The notes under the pieces were generated by a model that saw only the letters and a list, made by a program, of their open reading frames with translations, made no database searches and was not told the DNA's origin. The translations under genes were made by a program, and so were the position numbers. 10,878 nucleotides of DNA from a virus (lineage: Duplodnaviria; Heunggongvirae; Uroviricota; Caudoviricetes): the IMG/VR virus record IMGVR_UViG_2908567220_000005, one strand, 5' to 3'. Shown one piece after another: positions 1,302 through 9,546 of the stretch (position 1 is the first letter of the stretch; every line of letters starts with the position of its first letter).

Positions 1302-1973
1302 TTATTCCACCAGCAAAAATGGCGTTGCCCGGTCTATGACGTTGATGCCAATTAACGAGCCAACATTTCGACCATTCACAATGCTATCCCGTTCAAGCAA
1401 ATGCGCTATTTTTTCTACTTCATACCAGTATTGAGCCATGAGGGCTTTGGTCTTTTCAACGAGTTTAGAAAGCATTAACTCCCTGTTAATTCGCTTATCT
1501 GTAGCGCAGATTAAATCGAGCATGTCATTTACGTTAGCCATGTCATAGCGATGAGGTAGCGAATACTTTTTGTTGAAAATATCGTTGTTTTCGTAAAGGG
1601 CTTCGCTTACTGGTCCGGCGAGGGATACAAAAGCGGCCTTTTTTGCATCGCGCTTTATACCATCCGCATAGTAACGTATGAAAGGGATAACTTTACCATT
1701 CTGCCCAACTACACCAGATTTACTATCCCGCAAACGCCCGAGATCGTGGCTGTGAATTATGCTGTGTTTAACAACGCCCAAACACTTGGCCTCATGTACA
1801 TGTTCGCCAGCAACGTAACCGTATTCATCCATAACGGCGATAACCTGTATATCTAAGCGAATAAGCCATGCAGCTACTGCATGTCCCGCTTCGTGGAATG
1901 CTACACATCGTTTACCATCACCTATCCAGTTATAGAACATTTCATGCTCATATATCTGGTGAATGGCGCCCAT
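1302..1973 (-). CDS. Stand-alone FtsH-like (peptidase M41-type) zinc metalloprotease domain protein, 223 aa, no AAA+ ATPase module
   Basis: ATG at 1971..1973 overlaps the upstream gene's TAA stop (TAATG coupling). Intact HEXXH motif in VAFHEAGHAVAAW, as in FtsH (HEAGHA). Downstream segments (FVSLAGPVSEALYENND and the helical C-terminus ANVNDMLDLICATDKRINRELMLSKLVEKTKALMAQYWYEVEKIAHLL) parallel the FtsH protease domain. The ORF is too short to hold an ATPase domain, and no Walker A is present. Confidence 0.7.
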   Translation of the reverse strand: MGAIHQIYEHEMFYNWIGDGKRCVAFHEAGHAVAAWLIRLDIQVIAVMDEYGYVAGEHVHEAKCLGVVKHSIIHSHDLGRLRDSKSGVVGQNGKVIPFIRYYADGIKRDAKKAAFVSLAGPVSEALYENNDIFNKKYSLPHRYDMANVNDMLDLICATDKRINRELMLSKLVEKTKALMAQYWYEVEKIAHLLERDSIVNGRNVGSLIGINVIDRATPFLLVE

Positions 1974-2612: not shown

Positions 2613-5054
2613 TCAATCATCACTCTGCCCGCTCTCCACACCGTAAGCGCGTGGCATGAACTCCTCAGCCTTCTCGTTATAGCCAACGTTGGTTTGCGCT
2701 CTGCCGTTAATGCTTCTCGTCAGGTAGCTGGCTCGGTACTCTTTTGCTGCTGATTTTATGGCGCGTGAAAACTTATTGACGGAAAGCGGTTTACCCAAAC
2801 CGTGATACTCCATAAACGCCAGATAAAGATGATAAAGATACGTCCTCGGCTCTGGCTGGCCTGCCCATGTACCTCCGCCCATCATCATGCCTTTGGGTTC
2901 GTTCATGAAAAAAAGCGTCGCACACATATCGACAACCGGATCCGTGCCGCGTTTAACCTCTAGCGCCTCCTGCGAATCGCGCTGCTCTAGTAATAGTGCC
3001 TTTGCTTTGTTCTGGTCGGCAAAGGTGGTTAGCAGGTGGCGGATAATCACCGGGATTTCTCGCCTGATTTTTGCGGTTAAATCCGGGTCTTTGTCTGCGT
3101 CTGATACCGGGTTATTAAACGGGAATATCACGCGGCGGCGGGCAATGCCCCCGTTTCGCTCCGTGAATGTCATCGGCTCGTTATTGGTTGCCATAACAAC
3201 GGCATTTATCACGGTTGTGAACTGCTTTTCATATTTCCCATCAATCTCTACCGGATCGCCGCCCGTAATGGCTTTAATCCCCGCACCCTCTCCAACATAG
3301 CGGGTCTGGTCAGGCATAATAATCAGGCTTTTTCCTACGAACTGCGCCCGTCCCCGTGCGGTGTCCAGCGTCATCATGCTACCGCTGGCGGTGTTGTGTT
3401 CACCTGCCAGCGTGGTTGCTATGCTGCTGAATACGGATTTCCCACTGCCGCCCTCGCCAGTTATCTCAATGAATAGCTGCCAGTCGTGACGCTTCGCCAG
3501 CACCATAAACAAGGCTGCTTTGATACGCTCGGCCTTATGATGGTCGCCAGCCGTTGCATGATTCAGCCAACGGGTAAAATTGGGGGCGCTGGTGGTAATA
3601 TTTTCCCCCGGCGCTGGCGGGGTGTAGGTGATCCCATTGTGGTTCATCAGCCAGTTACCCGGCGAATGGGCGGAAAACGTCTGCGTAGCGAGGTCATAAA
3701 CGCCGTTATCAAAACCAATCAGATCCCCGCTCCGCTCACCAATTACCGGTATTTGCAGCTTCATGGTTGCGACAACCGATTTAATCCCCTTTTCGGTGTA
3801 GTGGGCTTCGTGCTCGTCGAAAATTGCCACCATAACCCTTTCTAATTCGCTGCCTGGTAGCTTCACCCATACGCCAGATTCGTAGCAGTAAACAGTGCCA
3901 CTATCAGGGTTAACCGCCAACATATCCCATCGAGATGAAAGCAACCGCGCTTTCTGGCTGGCTGCCATTTGTGCAATATCTCCGACATCGGCTTTACGGC
4001 GGGATTTACCGCCGTCAATGGCTTGCAATCGCGGTTTCACGGCTTCCCCTTGAATCTGGTACATCGAATCGTTAAACGCAGCCGTAGCGACTTCCAGCCC
4101 GTTTTGCTGGCGGTAGTCGTCCCAGTCGGCTTTGTAGTCTGTCGGCGGCAGCGCCACCCAGCCAGCCACGGATAAGGCGGCTTTCTCTGCGGCATCTTTG
4201 CCCGTGTTCGCCTGTTCGTCCTGCTGGTGGTCGTTATCTGCGGCAATGATAATCTGCACGGCTGGATATATCCGGCGCATCACTTCGGCAACGGGTAGCA
4301 GGTTGCCCGCGTCAATTGCTGCCACTGCCAGCGCGTCCGGGCGCATCAGGTGAACTGAAAGGGCCGTCGCCAGCCCCTCGGCAATTAAAACGCTCTGCGG
4401 CGATTCTGGCGCGTTTACGGCGTGATATGCCCCGCGCTTTGCTGAACCTGTCAGGAGTCGTTTATCTCCCTGCGGCGTGATGGTCTGCGCCGCCACTACT
4501 GCGCCGGATTCATCCACCAGCGGCAGGAGTAGCGAACCATCAGACATAACCGGGTAATTAAACCCGGTCAGCCCTTTTGATTGCAGGTAATCAGATTCGC
4601 CCTGTGTGACACTCTGGCGCATTCCGGCATACAGACGGGCAAACGTAGCCCTTCGCTGCTCTGCGTCCTCTGCTGCCTGTTTCTGGCGCTCCTGCTCACG
4701 CTGCTGGCGGTCAGCTTCCAGTTGCTCTCTTCTATGGCTCGCTGCCACCGGGTCGGTTTGCGCTGCCCGGTAATCAATACCCAGCACGTCAGCGGCAAGC
4801 TGTGCCGCCTCCGTAGTGTCGCAGTTGTTAACCCGCTTGATTAAATCCAGCCCGTCACCAGCGCCACACTGGTTGCAGATAAAGCTACCGCGCCCGTTGT
4901 CGTCGAATCTGAAACGGTCTTTTCCACCACATGCAGGGCATGGAGAATGGCGGCGCGATGAATCAGGAACGTCGATAGACAGGCCAGCCAGCACATAAGG
5001 CCATTTACCAGCGGCGGCGGTGGTCACTTCGCGGATAAGGTCGATATTACGCAT
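2613..5054 (-). CDS. P4 alpha-type bifunctional DNA primase / helicase (813 aa)
   Basis: ATG at 5052..5054 with SD GAGGGAG; TGA stop at 2613..2615. N-terminal Cys4 zinc-finger (CPACGGKDRFRFDDNGRGSFICNQCG), a central Toprim-like acidic region (VLIAEGLATA ... IIIAADNDH), and a C-terminal P-loop NTPase with Walker A (EITGEGGSGKSV). Size and layout match P4 alpha-like primases, followed by iterons. Confidence 0.9.
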   Translation of the reverse strand: MRNIDLIREVTTAAAGKWPYVLAGLSIDVPDSSRRHSPCPACGGKDRFRFDDNGRGSFICNQCGAGDGLDLIKRVNNCDTTEAAQLAADVLGIDYRAAQTDPVAASHRREQLEADRQQREQERQKQAAEDAEQRRATFARLYAGMRQSVTQGESDYLQSKGLTGFNYPVMSDGSLLLPLVDESGAVVAAQTITPQGDKRLLTGSAKRGAYHAVNAPESPQSVLIAEGLATALSVHLMRPDALAVAAIDAGNLLPVAEVMRRIYPAVQIIIAADNDHQQDEQANTGKDAAEKAALSVAGWVALPPTDYKADWDDYRQQNGLEVATAAFNDSMYQIQGEAVKPRLQAIDGGKSRRKADVGDIAQMAASQKARLLSSRWDMLAVNPDSGTVYCYESGVWVKLPGSELERVMVAIFDEHEAHYTEKGIKSVVATMKLQIPVIGERSGDLIGFDNGVYDLATQTFSAHSPGNWLMNHNGITYTPPAPGENITTSAPNFTRWLNHATAGDHHKAERIKAALFMVLAKRHDWQLFIEITGEGGSGKSVFSSIATTLAGEHNTASGSMMTLDTARGRAQFVGKSLIIMPDQTRYVGEGAGIKAITGGDPVEIDGKYEKQFTTVINAVVMATNNEPMTFTERNGGIARRRVIFPFNNPVSDADKDPDLTAKIRREIPVIIRHLLTTFADQNKAKALLLEQRDSQEALEVKRGTDPVVDMCATLFFMNEPKGMMMGGGTWAGQPEPRTYLYHLYLAFMEYHGLGKPLSVNKFSRAIKSAAKEYRASYLTRSINGRAQTNVGYNEKAEEFMPRAYGVESGQSDD

Positions 5055-5066
5055 TGTGTCGCTCCC

Positions 5067-5693
5067 TCAGTGCGCCGCTGGCATTTCAGGCAAGCCGTTT
5101 TCATTCAGATCAGCAATGAATCCATCATGCAGCTCTGCCAGCGTTTCACGTCCGAACGGGGTCAGCTCGCCGCGCTCCGTGTCGATCATGGCCTGATAAA
5201 AAACAATGGCGTTCGCCGTTCCCTGCTCAATGCCGTAGCGCTCAATCATTGCGCCTTCCATGTTGTTAGCCATCGCCAGACGTTCCGCGAACGGGTAAAC
5301 CACAATCCCCGCCGTGCCATTGGAGTAAATCGCTACTTTTGACGTTGTGCCGTCAGCCTCCGTGACGGTGGTTGTGCCGTTTTCGCGCTTCATCTCAGAA
5401 ATGAACGTCGCAGCAATCAGCCAGCGCCACATAGTGACGTTATGCTGCGCGGTGAAGTCGAACCAGCCACGCGCCCCGCCATCAGCAACGGCAAAATGGA
5501 TGGCGTATCCGATATCTGGCTTATCGTCGTACTCTCCGGCATCAAGTCGGTTTACTGCGCTCAGATAGTCGATAATGGCAACCTGCTCATATCCCCCGGC
5601 ATCATTGCGGGTCATGATATTGACGCCGTGCGGTGTGGCTTCGGCGTGTAATAAGTCGGCATTTCCCGATTTAATGGTCGGTGCGTTGCTCAT
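5067..5693 (-). CDS. Hypothetical protein (208 aa), co-transcribed immediately upstream of the primase
   Basis: ATG at 5691..5693 with SD GGAGGG; start overlaps the upstream ORF's stop (ATGA). No motif I recognise. Confidence 0.6.
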   Translation of the reverse strand: MSNAPTIKSGNADLLHAEATPHGVNIMTRNDAGGYEQVAIIDYLSAVNRLDAGEYDDKPDIGYAIHFAVADGGARGWFDFTAQHNVTMWRWLIAATFISEMKRENGTTTVTEADGTTSKVAIYSNGTAGIVVYPFAERLAMANNMEGAMIERYGIEQGTANAIVFYQAMIDTERGELTPFGRETLAELHDGFIADLNENGLPEMPAAH

Positions 5694-5953
5694 GCGCTGC
5701 CCTCCGCATCAATTCTGGCTATATCGACAATCGTCAGGACTTTACTCAGCCAGCAATACGCGATGGCTGCTTGCTCAACTTCGAGGAGTGGTAATAAATC
5801 GGTCATAACGTGAGCCAGCCCATTGCGGGCGCGGGTCATGCGTTCTGCTGTTCGGTCTGCCAGCGTAAAATCATCCGGGTATGATTCTTTGCGAGATAGC
5901 ATCGCTTCGGCTTCCAGCTCTGCCGGGTGGCGGTAGATGGTATTTATGTTCAT
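5690..5953 (-). CDS. Hypothetical protein (87 aa)
   Basis: ATG at 5951..5953 with SD GAGGTGG; ATGA overlap with both neighbours. No recognisable motif. Confidence 0.5.
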   Translation of the reverse strand: MNINTIYRHPAELEAEAMLSRKESYPDDFTLADRTAERMTRARNGLAHVMTDLLPLLEVEQAAIAYCWLSKVLTIVDIARIDAEGSA

Positions 5954-6129
5954 GCTGCCACCTCACGAATGCGGGTAATCTGGATGTGGGAAAGGCGTTC
6001 ATTTCTGGCCTGATTTAGCGCCTCAGCTTTGGCGCTGATCGCGCTGCGGGCGTCAACGATATAAACGAACTCGACTAATTCGCCGCTCCGGGCGGTGGCG
6101 CATCCTGCAACACGGAAGTAATTAAGCAT
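5950..6129 (-). CDS. Hypothetical protein (59 aa from the ATG at 6127..6129; the 69-aa track ORF starts at a TTG at 6159)
   Basis: The ATG at 6127..6129 overlaps the last codons of the upstream Icd-like ORF (ATGCTTAA), suggesting translational coupling. Stop overlaps the next start. No recognisable motif. Confidence 0.4.
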   Translation of the reverse strand: MLNYFRVAGCATARSGELVEFVYIVDARSAISAKAEALNQARNERLSHIQITRIREVAA

Positions 6130-6313
6130 GTGCGCCCCCTGTGCGAATACGTCCGGCAAAAAAGCAAACGTGATCCCGCGCCAGAATGCGGCGGGCTTCC
6201 TGCTCAGTTTCTGCGGCGATATGGTGAATTTTGGCGGTAATTGTCGGCATGTCGCGGCGAACGGCTGCGATTAACCAGATAAATTGTGGATTTTGGGTAG
6301 GGGTAGTAGCCAT
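6122..6313 (-). CDS. Icd-like small protein (host cell division inhibitor Icd family-like), 63 aa
   Basis: ATG at 6311..6313 preceded by SD AGAGG with an 8-nt spacer; TAA stop at 6122..6124. Sequence MATTPTQNPQFIWLIAAVRRDMPTITAKIHHIAAETEQEARRILARDHVCFFAGRIRTGGAHA resembles my recollection of Icd-like proteins in P4-like prophages. It forms the C-terminal part of the 257-aa track ORF, which I consider spurious upstream of this start. Confidence 0.5.
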   Translation of the reverse strand: MATTPTQNPQFIWLIAAVRRDMPTITAKIHHIAAETEQEARRILARDHVCFFAGRIRTGGAHA

Positions 6314-6319
6314 GATGGC

Positions 6320-6525
6320 AGCCTCTATACAGTGAATTTTGAATTCACCACCAAGAGACGCCAATCTCAGACTGGTGGTGAGCTGAACAAGGTTGGCGTA
6401 ACCGGCCTGTATAGACACCGGCCTTCCTTTCGGAAGCCTCATCCAGCCCACCATAATTTGGGTGCGCAGGAATTTTGCCGACAAAAAAACACGCTTAGTG
6501 CGTGTCGGCACTATACAGGTTATCG
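6320..6525 (-). ncRNA. Structured leader / candidate antisense immunity RNA (phage P4 CI-like or P1 C4-like)
   Basis: Plus-strand CTATACAG at 6325..6332 and 6511..6518, with its reverse complement CTGTATAG at 6407..6414. On the minus-strand transcript the order is CUGUAUAG ... CUAUACAG ... CUGUAUAG. The middle copy sits in the loop of a CCGG-stem hairpin (6401..6423). The last copy abuts the SD of the Icd-like gene. Other hairpins: GTGAATT-N3-AATTCAC at 6332..6348, CACCACCA-N19-TGGTGGTG at 6346..6380, CTTCC-TTTC-GGAAG near 6424..6437. Boundaries and strand are inferred. Confidence 0.4.
6481..6505 (-). terminator. Candidate intrinsic terminator inside the leader (6-bp stem, 5-nt loop, U7 tract on the minus strand)
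   Basis: Plus-strand ACACGC (6489..6494) / GCGTGT (6500..6505) inverted repeat preceded by A7 (6482..6488). On the minus strand this reads hairpin then UUUUUUU. It lies between the first and second 8-mer elements. Confidence 0.4.
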
Positions 6526-6833
6526 GGACGCCAATCCCGGCACCTGATTTTGCAGGTGCGCTATAACCATAAACCGGGTTGGCGATAGTCGGCAAGCCCT
6601 TTTTTATGGACTCGCAAAACTCACCTTCGCGCGTGCGCGTACTGGTCGCAAAACTCGAAAAAAACTTAGGATTTATTAGGATTCGCAGCCCAATTCTCAG
6701 CCCAGAAAACGCCTCTAAAATGTCGTCATTTGTCGCAACGGCGCGGCGATGAATGTCAGGTTTTGACAGGTTGTAAGGGTTAACATTTGTTAACAGGCTA
6801 GCCAGATTAAAGGCTTCTTTCTGGGCGGCAGGT

Positions 6834-7016
6834 TCATTCAGTATCACGGCGCACCTCCACGAACTCCTTAACGAATCTCTCCAAAGGCTGAACACATGGC
6901 GACTGATAGCCCTCGCGGTAAAAGGTCACTCGGTTATGCTCGACGCGCTGTACGGTCACTACAGCCCCGTGCGAATCCTTGTAACGGCTTCCCGGCATCG
7001 GATTATGGTTACGCAT
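6834..7016 (-). CDS. DUF4222-like small protein (60 aa)
   Basis: ATG at 7014..7016. Sequence MRNHNPMPGSRYKDSHGAVVTVQRVEHNRVTFYREGYQSPCVQPLERFVKEFVEV follows the pattern I recall for DUF4222 prophage proteins (YRD..G..VTV..V...RV.F.R.GY). Overlaps the 3' end of the antirepressor gene by 8 nt. Confidence 0.6.
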   Translation of the reverse strand: MRNHNPMPGSRYKDSHGAVVTVQRVEHNRVTFYREGYQSPCVQPLERFVKEFVEVRRDTE

Positions 7017-7842
7017 GGTTTACCTCCAGACGTTTAGCGAGCCAGCGTTGCGACAGGCGGGTGAGTTCTCCTTTGCGCTGCTCATATTCCATGCCCATAT
7101 CAATTAACGTGATATTGGTGCTTTCGAGATATGAGAGGTGCTCAAGCTGTTCTGCGTTCATATGGTCGCGAGGTTCGCCAGAATAGCCATTTATCCGCGC
7201 CCACTGCTTAGCAGTTAGCCCACCAAGAACGATACGAGAAATCATATTGCTCTCGTTTGTGTAGTGGTGTTGCTGCGTCGTTTTACCCATCTCGGCACGG
7301 GCCATATTCAGCGCATCGCACATCGGCTTAAAGTTGTTTGCGGCACTGATACGGGCTTTTAGCTGGCGACGATAGCGGGCGGCGATTTCAGGCACGCTAC
7401 GCTGTAATTCTTCCTCGCACTGGATGAAATAACGGCGGATAGCGCGGCCCTGTTCGGTGCGTTCGATCATTGCCAGTTCTTTCGCCATTCCGACACTTAA
7501 CAGATAGTCTTTGCCGGGTCTGCCAGAGTGCTTAATCTTGCTGTAAGCCGCGCCATTCGGGCTTTTCCCCAAATTTGGGGAAATAGTTTTATGGACTGAG
7601 TAATCGTGCCCAATGGTGAAGTCATATTCAGAGATGCGATCAGTGATCCATGTAGAGAAGTCTTTTCCCACGCCCAACGCTTTGTGTAACGCTTTTGCGC
7701 TAACAATATTGGTTTCACGCCCACCGATATGACCAGGAATAACCGGGACAATTGCGGCAAATTCATTACCGTTAATTGTGCCCTGATAGGCGTTCAGATG
7801 AGGGGCGGCCTCAGAAATTAATCTGCTTTTTTCGATGTTCAT
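7009..7842 (-). CDS. Phage antirepressor, AntA/AntB-domain protein (277 aa)
   Basis: ATG at 7840..7842 with SD GGAGA. N-terminal region (SAKALHKALGVGKDFSTWITDRISEYDFTIGHDY) matches the AntA antirepressor domain signature as I remember it. Confidence 0.75.
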   Translation of the reverse strand: MNIEKSRLISEAAPHLNAYQGTINGNEFAAIVPVIPGHIGGRETNIVSAKALHKALGVGKDFSTWITDRISEYDFTIGHDYSVHKTISPNLGKSPNGAAYSKIKHSGRPGKDYLLSVGMAKELAMIERTEQGRAIRRYFIQCEEELQRSVPEIAARYRRQLKARISAANNFKPMCDALNMARAEMGKTTQQHHYTNESNMISRIVLGGLTAKQWARINGYSGEPRDHMNAEQLEHLSYLESTNITLIDMGMEYEQRKGELTRLSQRWLAKRLEVNHA

Positions 7843-7854
7843 TTTCAGTCTCCG

Positions 7855-8286
7855 TTAGGCGGCGGTGAGATTGTCCGGGTATAGATTGAGAATGTCGGCA
7901 ATTTCAGGCTGAGAAAGTCCCTGATAGCCGCCAGCGTCGGCGTTATGGTTCACAAGCCGAATAACTTTTAGAACGTCACCGCGCCCGGTAAAGCGATAGC
8001 GTAAATGTGACCCTATCCCGTCGGGGTTCTTTTCGTCTATACGCTCAAGCTGAATATCAAGCCTGCGCTCTAACTCGCTGGCGTAGTTCCTTCCAGACGA
8101 AAGGCGGCAATAACGCAGAATATCGTTTTCTGTCCATCCCTCTATACCAGTACGCAGCATATAGACGCGGGCGCGGTGTTTCTTTGGGGTACGCTTAGGT
8201 ACTTGTACAGGGCTGGTGGGCGGGGTAATATCAGTACCGCGAATATCTGAATTAGCCGCCTGTAATGGGCGGTTTTTCTTTTCCAT
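7855..8286 (-). CDS. Hypothetical protein (143 aa), translationally coupled to alpA
   Basis: ATG at 8284..8286 overlaps the alpA stop (TAATG). Pro/Thr-rich basic N-terminus followed by a predicted helical domain. No confident family assignment. Confidence 0.55.
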   Translation of the reverse strand: MEKKNRPLQAANSDIRGTDITPPTSPVQVPKRTPKKHRARVYMLRTGIEGWTENDILRYCRLSSGRNYASELERRLDIQLERIDEKNPDGIGSHLRYRFTGRGDVLKVIRLVNHNADAGGYQGLSQPEIADILNLYPDNLTAA

Positions 8287-8489
8287 TACGCCACCTTTCC
8301 CCGGCGCTCCGCCAGCCAGTTGTGAATATCAGCCGCATCAAACGCAGTTATTTTTTCTCCCAGCTTTACCGGACGTGGTAGTGAACCGTTTCTTACTTTA
8401 CGGTCGATGGTGGATACACTAACGCCCAGCAATTCAGCCAGGCGAAAGCGTCTGATATAGCCTTTTGTAGGGATAGTGTCGATGTTCAT
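8286..8489 (-). CDS. alpA: AlpA/Vis-family phage transcriptional regulator / excisionase-like HTH protein (67 aa)
   Basis: ATG at 8487..8489. Sequence RFRLAELLGVSVSTIDRKVRNGSLPRPVKLGEKITAFDAADIHNWL is the AlpA-type HTH signature. Its position downstream of a P4-type integrase matches the int-alpA arrangement of CP4-57/P4-like elements. Confidence 0.8.
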   Translation of the reverse strand: MNIDTIPTKGYIRRFRLAELLGVSVSTIDRKVRNGSLPRPVKLGEKITAFDAADIHNWLAERRGKVA

Positions 8490-8552
8490 GATTCCCGTAA
8501 CCTCTTAGCGATAGTTGTTGCTTCGTTACGAGAAATCTAGCTGTATAGATAT

Positions 8553-8586
8553 ACAATGAAAAGGTACTGTAATTTTGCAGTACCTC
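8553..8586 (-). terminator. Candidate intrinsic terminator downstream of the 316-aa ORF
   Basis: Perfect 8-bp inverted repeat AGGTACTG (8562..8569) / CAGTACCT (8578..8585) with an 8-nt loop. On the minus strand it is followed by UUUCAUUGUAUAU. It sits between the stop of the 316-aa gene (8596) and the alpA start. Confidence 0.35.
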
Positions 8587-8595
8587 TATAGCAAG

Positions 8596-9546
8596 TTAAC
8601 TATCCACTTTGCCATTTGCCGCAGATCGTAGATGTTTAAGAATTACATCTTCATTAGTTATCATAAGTGGTGGAACTTCGTCTAAATGACGAACAAGACA
8701 GTCACGCCACTTCTCAGGGCTTATTTCTTTCCTTTCTCCCCTGCATTCATTTGGATACTTACTAAGTATATAAATTGCAGATTTTAATAGTTTCTCCCTA
8801 TTGACTGCGTACCGTTCGGCACGTTTATTAACTTTTAGCGTATTTATATCATTGGATAACTTGTTTGCGGATGGTTTGTGCATGGGGCTGTCATAAATAT
8901 ATTTTCCTCCATTTATAAGAAGATTGTATTCATAGTCAGTTATATACATTTTATTTCGGCTTATTTCATACCAGCCGTCAATATAAAAAGCTCCGATTTC
9001 ATAATTATTCGATTTGCTAAACTCGTCACATCTCGGAGGCATCAGTTCGCATACAGAGATCTCCCAATCATCCCATTCTGATAGCTCCCGCTCATCGTTA
9101 TCTATGAACGCAGACGGAATTGCTAATAGACCGTTCCATCTTTCGATATCTCTTTCATCCTTCCCAACATTGTATCGCTCTATAACTGAGAAATGTTCTG
9201 ATTTGTATGAAAACCTCATAAAATACATATGGTTATCGCTATTTTTATAATCAAGCGGTGATAAGCCATATGATTCGAGATTATCTGCCTCATTGCTCAG
9301 ATCAAGAAGATAATTCTCATGTACTGCTTTTGTATCTATATGAAAAATACTATCTGTTTCAACTTTAAGTAATTCTGGATCGGCATCTTCATTTTTGGGG
9401 TAATGGTAAAACAATTCAATAGGTGGAATTTTTATACATATTTCTAAAACCCCAATTGCTGCATAGTGTATTAAATCGGATACTTCACATCCGGCCAGTT
9501 TGGCTGCTTTATCCAAAGAATAATATTTATGCGCAGGTAATTTCAT
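8596..9546 (-). CDS. Hypothetical AT-rich cargo protein (316 aa) between integrase and alpA; possible N-terminal HTH-like region
   Basis: ATG at 9544..9546 with SD GAGAGGAAAG, only 18 bp after the integrase stop. Clearly lower GC than flanking genes (by eye roughly one-third GC versus about one-half). N-terminus YYSLDKAAKLAGCEVSDLIHYAAIGVLE looks HTH-like; the remainder is acidic and aromatic-rich with no motif I recognise. Confidence 0.65.
   Translation of the reverse strand: MKLPAHKYYSLDKAAKLAGCEVSDLIHYAAIGVLEICIKIPPIELFYHYPKNEDADPELLKVETDSIFHIDTKAVHENYLLDLSNEADNLESYGLSPLDYKNSDNHMYFMRFSYKSEHFSVIERYNVGKDERDIERWNGLLAIPSAFIDNDERELSEWDDWEISVCELMPPRCDEFSKSNNYEIGAFYIDGWYEISRNKMYITDYEYNLLINGGKYIYDSPMHKPSANKLSNDINTLKVNKRAERYAVNREKLLKSAIYILSKYPNECRGERKEISPEKWRDCLVRHLDEVPPLMITNEDVILKHLRSAANGKVDS

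Follow-up and report, generated by a model that had tools for sequence, protein, structure and literature searches.

A probable P4-type RNA immunity leader nested in an eta/kil-like gene pair of a phage-satellite island

The minus strand of positions 6320-6530 very probably encodes the RNA-based immunity leader of a phage-satellite island of the P4/PICI type. The window analysed here is a stretch of 10,878 nucleotides from a viral record, and all positions are counted from its first letter. Both the layout and the parts of the leader are homologous to those of the PLE leader in P4. The system is of an already well-known kind, in which a small antisense RNA silences replication genes as in P4 and P1, and it has a recognition sequence of its own. 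Profiles of C4 and isrK are reported to match Gram-negative PICIs and HE-PICIs (PMC10111431, which also summarises the mechanism of eta, kil, CI and seqA in P4). PICI-like islands with such systems are already published, the literature regards leaders of this kind as a single system, and what is new is a single uncharacterised immunity type.

The logic of P4 immunity and of the P1/P7 C4 RNA, which had been proposed for this region from its letters alone, is supported by covariance models. Three Rfam families, isrK, C4 and c4-a1b1, match the minus strand above their curated gathering scores, and P4 carries isrK and C4 in the same order. Along the minus strand the matches are arranged as a1b1/isrK, terminator and C4. 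The c4-a1b1 motif, i.e. the upstream targets of C4, was defined together with the C4 motif in PMC2864571, and its model (RF03163) matches 6520..6572 with 48.4 bits (gathering score 46.7). The IsrK or seqA-type leader RNA (RF01394) is found at 6484..6559 with 75.8 bits (gathering score 50, E=3.4e-15), and its elements follow in the order hairpin 1, hairpin 2 displaying the site a1, a single-stranded site b1 and an intrinsic terminator. The isrK family is a family of Hfq-binding small RNAs. The terminator (6483..6506) consists of a 7-bp stem and a 5-nt loop followed by U7 (6489..6483); it was found independently of the isrK model and lies also within the match to this model. A hairpin with a U7 tract had been described between the upstream 8-mer and its complement (see below), and it is indeed located there, at 6506..6483. 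The C4 or CI-type antisense RNA (RF01695) extends over 6371..6458 with 72.4 bits (gathering score 45, E=5.9e-13), and the match covers the full model, positions 1-87 of 87. It shows a 17-bp closing helix, a hairpin P2 and a hairpin P3 with a 12-nt loop carrying the site b'. When segment 6458..6371 is folded alone, the minimum-energy structure is the family consensus, at -42.5 kcal/mol. In P1 and P4, processing (RNase P) yields a stable C4 RNA about 77 nt long. The fold of the 281-nt leader has a z-score of -4.9 versus shuffled sequences. A putative constitutive leader promoter is located at 6566..6595, with a -35 box TTGCCG (6595..6590), an 18-nt spacer and a -10 box TATGGT (6571..6566), and the predicted transcription start is close to 6559. 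This promoter was assigned from its P4-like geometry, the P4 promoter being composed of TTGCCT, 18 nt and TATAGT located 6 nt before the first hairpin; with 8 of 12 matches it was not flagged by a consensus promoter scan.

The 8-mer CTGTATAG (site b, CUGUAUAG in RNA) is present on the minus strand at 6518..6511 and 6332..6325, and the complementary core CUAUACAG at 6414..6407, as stated in the original prediction. The window contains four copies of this 8-mer versus 0.17 expected, and none of 200 shuffles reaches four. The complementary core is displayed in the 12-nt b' loop UGUCUAUACAGG (6406..6417), and the hairpin with a CCGG stem that had been described around it is confirmed, the loop being closed by GCCGG/CCGGU (6422..6418 and 6405..6401). 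Pairing with this loop extends over 9 nt at both targets. The upstream target, b1, is CCUGUAUAG (6511..6519), a single-stranded site that corresponds to the first 8-mer plus one base. The downstream target, b2, is CUGUAUAGA (6324..6332), which overlaps the Shine-Dalgarno sequence AGAGG (6326..6322) of an Icd-like ORF, in line with the contact noticed earlier between the downstream 8-mer and this sequence. The predicted duplexes have energies of -16.5 kcal/mol for b':b2 and -13.4 kcal/mol for b':b1, versus about -4.7 kcal/mol for shuffled targets. The Icd-like or Kil-like ORF itself (6122..6313, 63 aa, ATG at 6313) matches the NCBIfam model phage_ICD_like with 73.1 bits. It is the first gene translated from the putative leader promoter, and its ATG is located 8 nt beyond the AGAGG sequence. 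The Kil protein of P4 (65 aa) matches the same model with 76.1 bits, and the window and P4 are identical over the 20 nt that surround the start codon (GAGGCUGCCAUCAUGGCUAC).

The single recognition set recognized from the 8-mers is real, but it is only one of two: the sites a and b coexist, and the set formed by UUGGCGU and ACGCCAA had been overlooked. UUGGCGU occurs twice on the minus strand, as a1 in the loop of hairpin 2 (6528..6534) and as a2 in a hairpin loop (6358..6364), and ACGCCAA occurs once, as a' in the single-stranded junction of C4 (6393..6399). The a' and b' sites of C4 are each complementary to an upstream and a downstream site of the same transcript, the downstream set being located at the ribosome-binding site of the next ORF. 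The hairpin that displays a2 (6346..6380) and the closing helix of C4 share one arm, CACCACC, which is 5' in the former and 3' in the latter. Because this arm is common to both, the a2 hairpin and the C4 closing helix are alternative structures. The predicted duplex a':a1 reaches -11.9 kcal/mol and a':a2 -10.3 kcal/mol, versus about -4.7 kcal/mol for shuffled targets. This two-site design is as in P1, and P4 likewise has two complementary sites on each side of its antisense RNA.

Both sites were compared among relatives of the leader. A phage set of 27 distinct family members was obtained from a scan of viral contigs with the conserved hairpin pattern, and an icd set from a protein-seeded scan with one genome per species, which gave 20 icd-type loci in 20 species, one of them without the leader. 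In 27/27 phage loci, in 23/23 icd-type loci and in P4, a1 and a2 are identical and fully complementary to a', the match being exactly 7 nt long; 14 distinct a sequences are found among the phage loci and 6 among the icd-type loci. The loops are more diverse, with 23 distinct loops in the phage set and 15 in the icd set, and they differ in almost every lineage. Complementarity to the loop is kept despite this divergence, over a mean of 7.2 nt for b1 and 8.4 nt for b2. Complementarity is greater within than between loci, 8.4 versus 4.9 nt for b' and 7.0 versus 4.3 nt for a', the cross-locus values covering 4.0-4.9 nt. An alignment of 35 sequences contains 55 double-change cells versus 22.6 in shuffles, and none of 500 shuffles gave a count as high. 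The alignment-based count for the a sites, 78% paired cells, reflects a shift of a' by one column in about one third of the rows of the MAFFT alignment; counted without alignment, 7/7 nt are paired in every locus. Since a and b both covary three ways across loci, they are, as judged by this comparison, the predicted specificity determinants of the system, with a taken from a small repertoire and b hypervariable.

These elements suggest how the island may be kept silent. In the quiescent state, transcription would begin near 6559 from a weak constitutive promoter (about 6595..6566), and most transcripts would stop at the U7 terminator, giving an IsrK/seqA-like RNA of about 77 nt that carries a1 and b1. 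Transcripts that read through would contain the C4/CI-like RNA (6458..6371), which is probably excised to give a stable species of about 80 nt. Its b' (CUAUACAG) and a' (ACGCCAA) sites could then pair in trans with b2 and a2 of other leader transcripts, and the Shine-Dalgarno sequence in front of the 63-aa icd/kil-like ORF would thereby be covered. The C-rich start of icd would be left exposed in the absence of ribosomes, and transcription would end, probably via Rho, before the replication operon and its primase. A candidate Rho loading region, C-rich and G-poor, is found at 6243..6320; this proposal is by composition only, the C/G ratio of 2.15 being the highest within 5700-6600. The position of this stretch is comparable to that of timm inside P4 kil. 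Pairing at the upstream a1/b1 sites would either strengthen early termination, as an autoregulation of C4, or titrate C4. A role can be assigned to the upstream copy with less certainty than to b2, since several relatives have a degenerate b1 (4-5 nt) and b1 is often weaker than b2 among relatives.

It is possible, though we hold this view tentatively, that the short RNA (6559..6484) acts as in the activation described for IsrK, i.e. that it remodels or unmasks the long transcript in trans or sponges C4 via a1/b1, so that translation of the icd-like ORF and of the genes following it is switched on. The isrK model is the best-scoring Rfam match at the leader, and the Gifsy-1 locus of Salmonella (IsrK/STnc1160/orf45/anrP) has several traits in common with the window: an RNA of the isrK family, a terminated short RNA, read-through into a small ORF and a processed C4-like RNA (PMC4825925). 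There, the short IsrK RNA supplied in trans was reported to activate, and not to repress, translation of the downstream ORF (orf45/anrP), the processed C4-like STnc1160 RNA being located downstream, and activation by the short RNA is the published model (PMC4825925). Unlike in the window, the gene downstream of the Gifsy-1 leader is an antirepressor. The a1/b1 sites are exact mimics of a2/b2 and could compete for C4, and in the minimum-energy structure computed for the whole leader they are paired in cis with a'/b', which fits a co-target or a decoy/activator role alike; the sequence as such does not tell a decoy from a co-target. Against activation, the seqA copy of P4 has been described as needed for immunity and termination and not for activation (PMC3632133; PMC10111431), and the frequent weakness of b1 relative to b2 in relatives points the same way. 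Activation of the IsrK type could also coexist with repression by C4 instead of replacing it.

The genes around the leader favour a satellite of the P4/PICI type. In the direction of transcription, all on the minus strand, they are an integrase, a 316-aa ORF, an AlpA-type regulator, a 143-aa ORF, an AntA-family gene (7009..7842), a DUF4222 gene and the leader with its eta/kil-like frames. A downstream operon (2613..6159) then comprises three small ORFs, a 208-aa ORF and a P4-family primase of 813 aa (2613..5054; Zn-ribbon, Toprim, D5_N and DUF5906, with 111 bits for TIGR01613), and a PerC-family regulator is located further downstream of the primase. In P4 (NC_001609), isrK (8692..8615) and C4 (8507..8420) are found in the same order as in the window, upstream of kil and of the same GAGGCUGCCAUCAUGGCUAC stretch. 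Other common traits are a first ORF of the Kil/Icd type (63-65 aa), a long eta-like ORF with its start upstream of the promoter, a P4-family primase downstream and a gene of the AlpA/Vis type upstream. P4 differs from the window in a leader that is longer by about 80 nt between the terminator and CI, and in the genes from kil to the primase, which are unrelated; P4 epsilon matches PF25738, whereas the window ORFs scanned do not. A further difference from P4 is that AntA and DUF4222 genes separate alpA from eta in the window. Among the ORFs of the window that were scanned, Pfam gave no match for psu, sid or delta, and the window may not hold the whole island. Gram-negative PICIs resemble the window in their integrase, AlpA, antirepressor, 'Ash family protein', P4-type primase and PerC, and EcCIMP1 (PMC11773190) has this same Gram-negative PICI gene set. 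The description of EcCIMP1 (PMC11773190) mentions no RNA immunity element, and the word 'antisense' is absent from it.

An arrangement closer to the immI region of P1/P7, in which C4 would mainly silence an antirepressor via coupling to icd and a protein repressor encoded elsewhere would decide, appears improbable. Homologs of C4 and Icd are present at the locus. The immI region of P1/P7 (c4, icd, ant) resembles the window in its C4 with a' and b', its a1/b1 sites upstream and a2/b2 sites downstream and the related N-terminus of Icd, and in a P1-like phage C4 precedes icd, b2 lies over the same ribosome-binding region, and the a/b layout and logic are the same. A Bro/Ant-type gene also directly follows the leader in most phage relatives. 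However, the window lacks an antirepressor downstream of icd: the AntA-family gene (7842..7009) sits upstream, icd is followed by the small ORFs and the P4-family primase, and a domain scan of the ORFs downstream of icd found no Ant or Bro domain. As the AntA-type antirepressor gene is upstream of the leader, the P1 order c4, icd, ant does not apply literally. In addition, an eta-like ORF crosses the leader in the window and in P4, whereas the P1-like phage has no ORF crossing it. P1 is moreover a plasmid prophage and not a satellite.

This eta-like ORF has 241 aa from a GTG start at 6847 (6122..6847), the CDS that PGAP annotates in an identical E. coli locus, and as a mechanical ORF it has 257 aa from a GTG at 6895. 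It starts upstream of the putative leader promoter, spans the whole leader and ends, in frame, as the icd/kil-like ORF. At the PGAP start (6845..6858), the sequence reads GGAGG (6858..6854), 6 nt and GTG (6847..6845), and the DUF4222 gene (stop at 6836..6834) overlaps this start with its last codons, as is typical of translational coupling. The window ORF matches the eta ORF of P4 by BLASTP with E=5e-12, and the equivalent ORF in P4 (8168..8812) ends in the 65-aa Kil sequence. From this homology, the long ORF corresponds to P4 eta and the Icd-like ORF to P4 kil nested at its end. The original prediction had set translation of the 257-aa ORF against the RNA reading; this opposition does not hold, the equivalent eta of P4 being translated and coexisting with RNA immunity (PMC10111431). 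The passages of PMC10111431 that relate Forti et al. (1999) place the constitutive promoter of P4 inside eta, with Kil as a truncated form made from it; according to the same passages, full-length Eta is made only from the upstream late promoter, and its translation prevents termination.

The frame is conserved open among the icd-type loci. Over 300 nt upstream of the ATG, the icd frame is free of stop codons in 17/20 species, the two other frames in 0/20 and 3/20; over 600 nt, the figures are 11/20 versus 0/20 and 2/20. In the three exceptions, it is another frame that crosses the leader. In 21/24 loci the distance from a1 to the ATG leaves a remainder of 2 on division by 3, whichever of its seven values between 215 and 302 nt it takes. 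The C4 loop always has 12 nt where the leader stays in the icd frame, and 11 nt in the frame-shifted locus L060. Phage relatives in which the leader is followed by an antirepressor have no consistently open frame, and their loops measure 9 to 15 nt. Openness of the icd frame thus distinguishes 17/20 icd-type loci from 5/24 phage relatives (Fisher p = 5e-5). That the long ORF is an annotation artefact was rejected in view of the open frame in 17/20 species, the frame-preserving leader lengths and the match to P4 eta. That it encodes an ordinary protein was rejected because the leader lacks codon periodicity: its nucleotide diversity at codon positions 1, 2 and 3 is 0.30, 0.33 and 0.30, and that of the stretch upstream of the promoter 0.34, 0.34 and 0.32, whereas the last 63 codons, which form the icd ORF, have values of 0.12, 0.11 and 0.34, a clear coding signature. 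That the region is a plain CDS of a 241-aa 'Ash/Icd-like' protein with incidental 8-mers, as its annotation by PGAP as one CDS, its conserved open frame and the Pfam Phage_ASH match to residues 110-202 of the long ORF could suggest, is most implausible, and as sole explanation already contradicted, by this even variation of the leader codon positions, the matches to three RNA covariance models, the covariation of the a and b sites as base pairs and the phage relatives without a consistently open frame.

An open frame that is not constrained at the protein level would fit a role for translation as such rather than for the peptide, and the comparative data support the 'translate-through' model of P4 eta well beyond P4. 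Upon induction, firing of the upstream promoter of the alpA, antA and DUF4222 operon would bring ribosomes into the eta-like ORF by coupling. These ribosomes would translate through the leader, and transcription would become insensitive to immunity. We give about even chances to a broader reading, in which the eta-like ORF of enterobacterial satellites, open in frame across genera but not conserved in its amino acids, is retained solely as a 'ribosome track' overriding RNA immunity, Phage_ASH is the translated IsrK-C4 RNA and a and b form a combinatorial code. The Pfam family Phage_ASH, whose model has been used as an epsilon marker to find P4-like satellites (PMC8628076), corresponds to the translated leader. 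If this broader reading is true, any transcript begun upstream gets translated through the leader, overriding RNA immunity, and a code of few a types and hypervariable b sorts satellites and phages into heteroimmunity groups. For annotation, the label of a single 241-aa 'Icd-like protein', which PGAP gives as one CDS in the identical E. coli locus, should be replaced by an RNA immunity leader (IsrK-like RNA, terminator and C4-like RNA) nested in an eta/kil pair. The known working of such systems is left unchanged, and the finding, useful for annotation, is unsurprising to the specialist.

The a and b sequences predict mutual exclusion or indifference among satellites and phages. The sites read UUGGCGU (a) and CUGUAUAG (b) in the element versus GUGAGAA (a) and UUCACAGG (b) in P4, and we infer that the element would be heteroimmune to P4. 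With leaders of the L026/L044 type it has the a sequence in common, with a different b. The proposed specificity of the 8-mer for this element is correct in so far as the sequence differs from that of P4 and of most relatives; it is not unique, however, since near-identical leaders occur in Enterobacter intestinihominis, in Lonsdalea britannica and in two viral contigs. Judging from these sequences, the element should be homoimmune to the near-identical Enterobacter and Lonsdalea islands. A search of the viral contigs for the exact loop 16-mer returned 11 loci, 9 of them unrelated chance matches, and no full-size phage with the same specificity. The fourth copy of CTGTATAG in the window (8541-8548, plus strand) was judged unrelated to the leader; it is within a palindrome upstream of the alpA-like gene. 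At the scale of the 311-nt leader, relatives with 66-75% identity are found in 272 phage records, including Stx phages, SfV and ST64B. Among complete E. coli genomes no exact match to the window was found, the best having 96% identity over 89% of the window's length. E. coli D5 carries an island with an identical 801-nt leader region, located between yicC and dinD, and E. coli PCN061 is another strain in which the leader is identical. The relative of the leader in SfV is annotated as 'immunity region'.

In the long ORF that crosses the leader, the match to PF10554 (Phage_ASH) in Pfam coincides exactly with the translated IsrK-C4 leader part (window 6290..6568, minus strand). Likewise, PF10554 covers exactly the translated IsrK-C4 stretch of the long ORF in phage P4 (L042, 8168..8812). 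Because codon periodicity is absent from the leader, it seems to be the RNA that drives conservation in this "protein family". PF10554 is given as the epsilon marker for detection of P4-like satellites in PMC8628076; the Pfam match of P4 epsilon is PF25738 instead of PF10554.

Within the leader, the sequence CACCACC takes part in two structures: it is the 3' strand of the closing helix of C4 (6371..6458), and also the 5' strand of the hairpin (6346..6380) with a2, a downstream target site of C4, in its loop. As this element is common to both structures, the precursor must choose between the closing helix and the a2 hairpin. Such dual use of CACCACC is kept throughout the family alignment.

In three icd-type loci, those of Klebsiella michiganensis (L053), Escherichia sp. 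(L060) and Buttiauxella izardii (L062), the ORF that spans the leader uses a frame other than that of icd and extends 364-1060 nt beyond the icd start codon. Gene fusion, or an eta-like gene arranged in another way, may account for these three cases. Many icd-type leaders (L046, L050, L053, L055, L058, L059, L063 and L052) carry an extra 24-42 nt after the terminator and ahead of C4, and the corresponding insert of P4 measures about 80 nt; the reading frame is always kept by these inserts. Several of them contain a -10-like TATAAT ("GGTATAATCC"), from which the C4 RNA might be transcribed as from a second promoter.

The eta-like frame contains, immediately upstream of the leader promoter, three groups of short direct repeats (window 6612..6704): TCGCAAAACTC, present at 6612-6622 and 6646-6656 (34 nt apart), two copies of TTAGGATT within 6666-6683 (10 nt apart), and a tandem 12-mer, ATTC(G/T)CAGCCCA, at 6681-6704. 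In related loci, translation of the same region gives a recurring "F-x-T-S-T-R", a sign that a DNA motif is repeated there. The direct repeats of the window may serve as protein-binding sites.

The gap preceding the alpA-like gene (8489..8286) contains a hairpin that resembles a terminator, AGGTACTG..CAGTACCT, with Ts after it (window 8562..8585) and, just downstream on the minus strand, the palindrome TGTATATCTATACA (8542..8555), which includes a fourth copy of CTGTATAG, the 8-mer motif of the original prediction. The palindrome may act as operator or promoter for the upstream operon, whose transcripts would run into the eta-like ORF.

Downstream of the primase, a 223-aa ORF (1302..1973, minus strand) presents a HEAGH zinc-metalloprotease motif and a weak, sub-threshold match with Peptidase_M41; it is cargo. 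The E. coli D5 island, whose leader is identical to that of the window, has a different cargo (SSB) at this place. The primase CDS annotated in that island exceeds the one in the window in length (2760 nt, about 919 aa, versus 813 aa).
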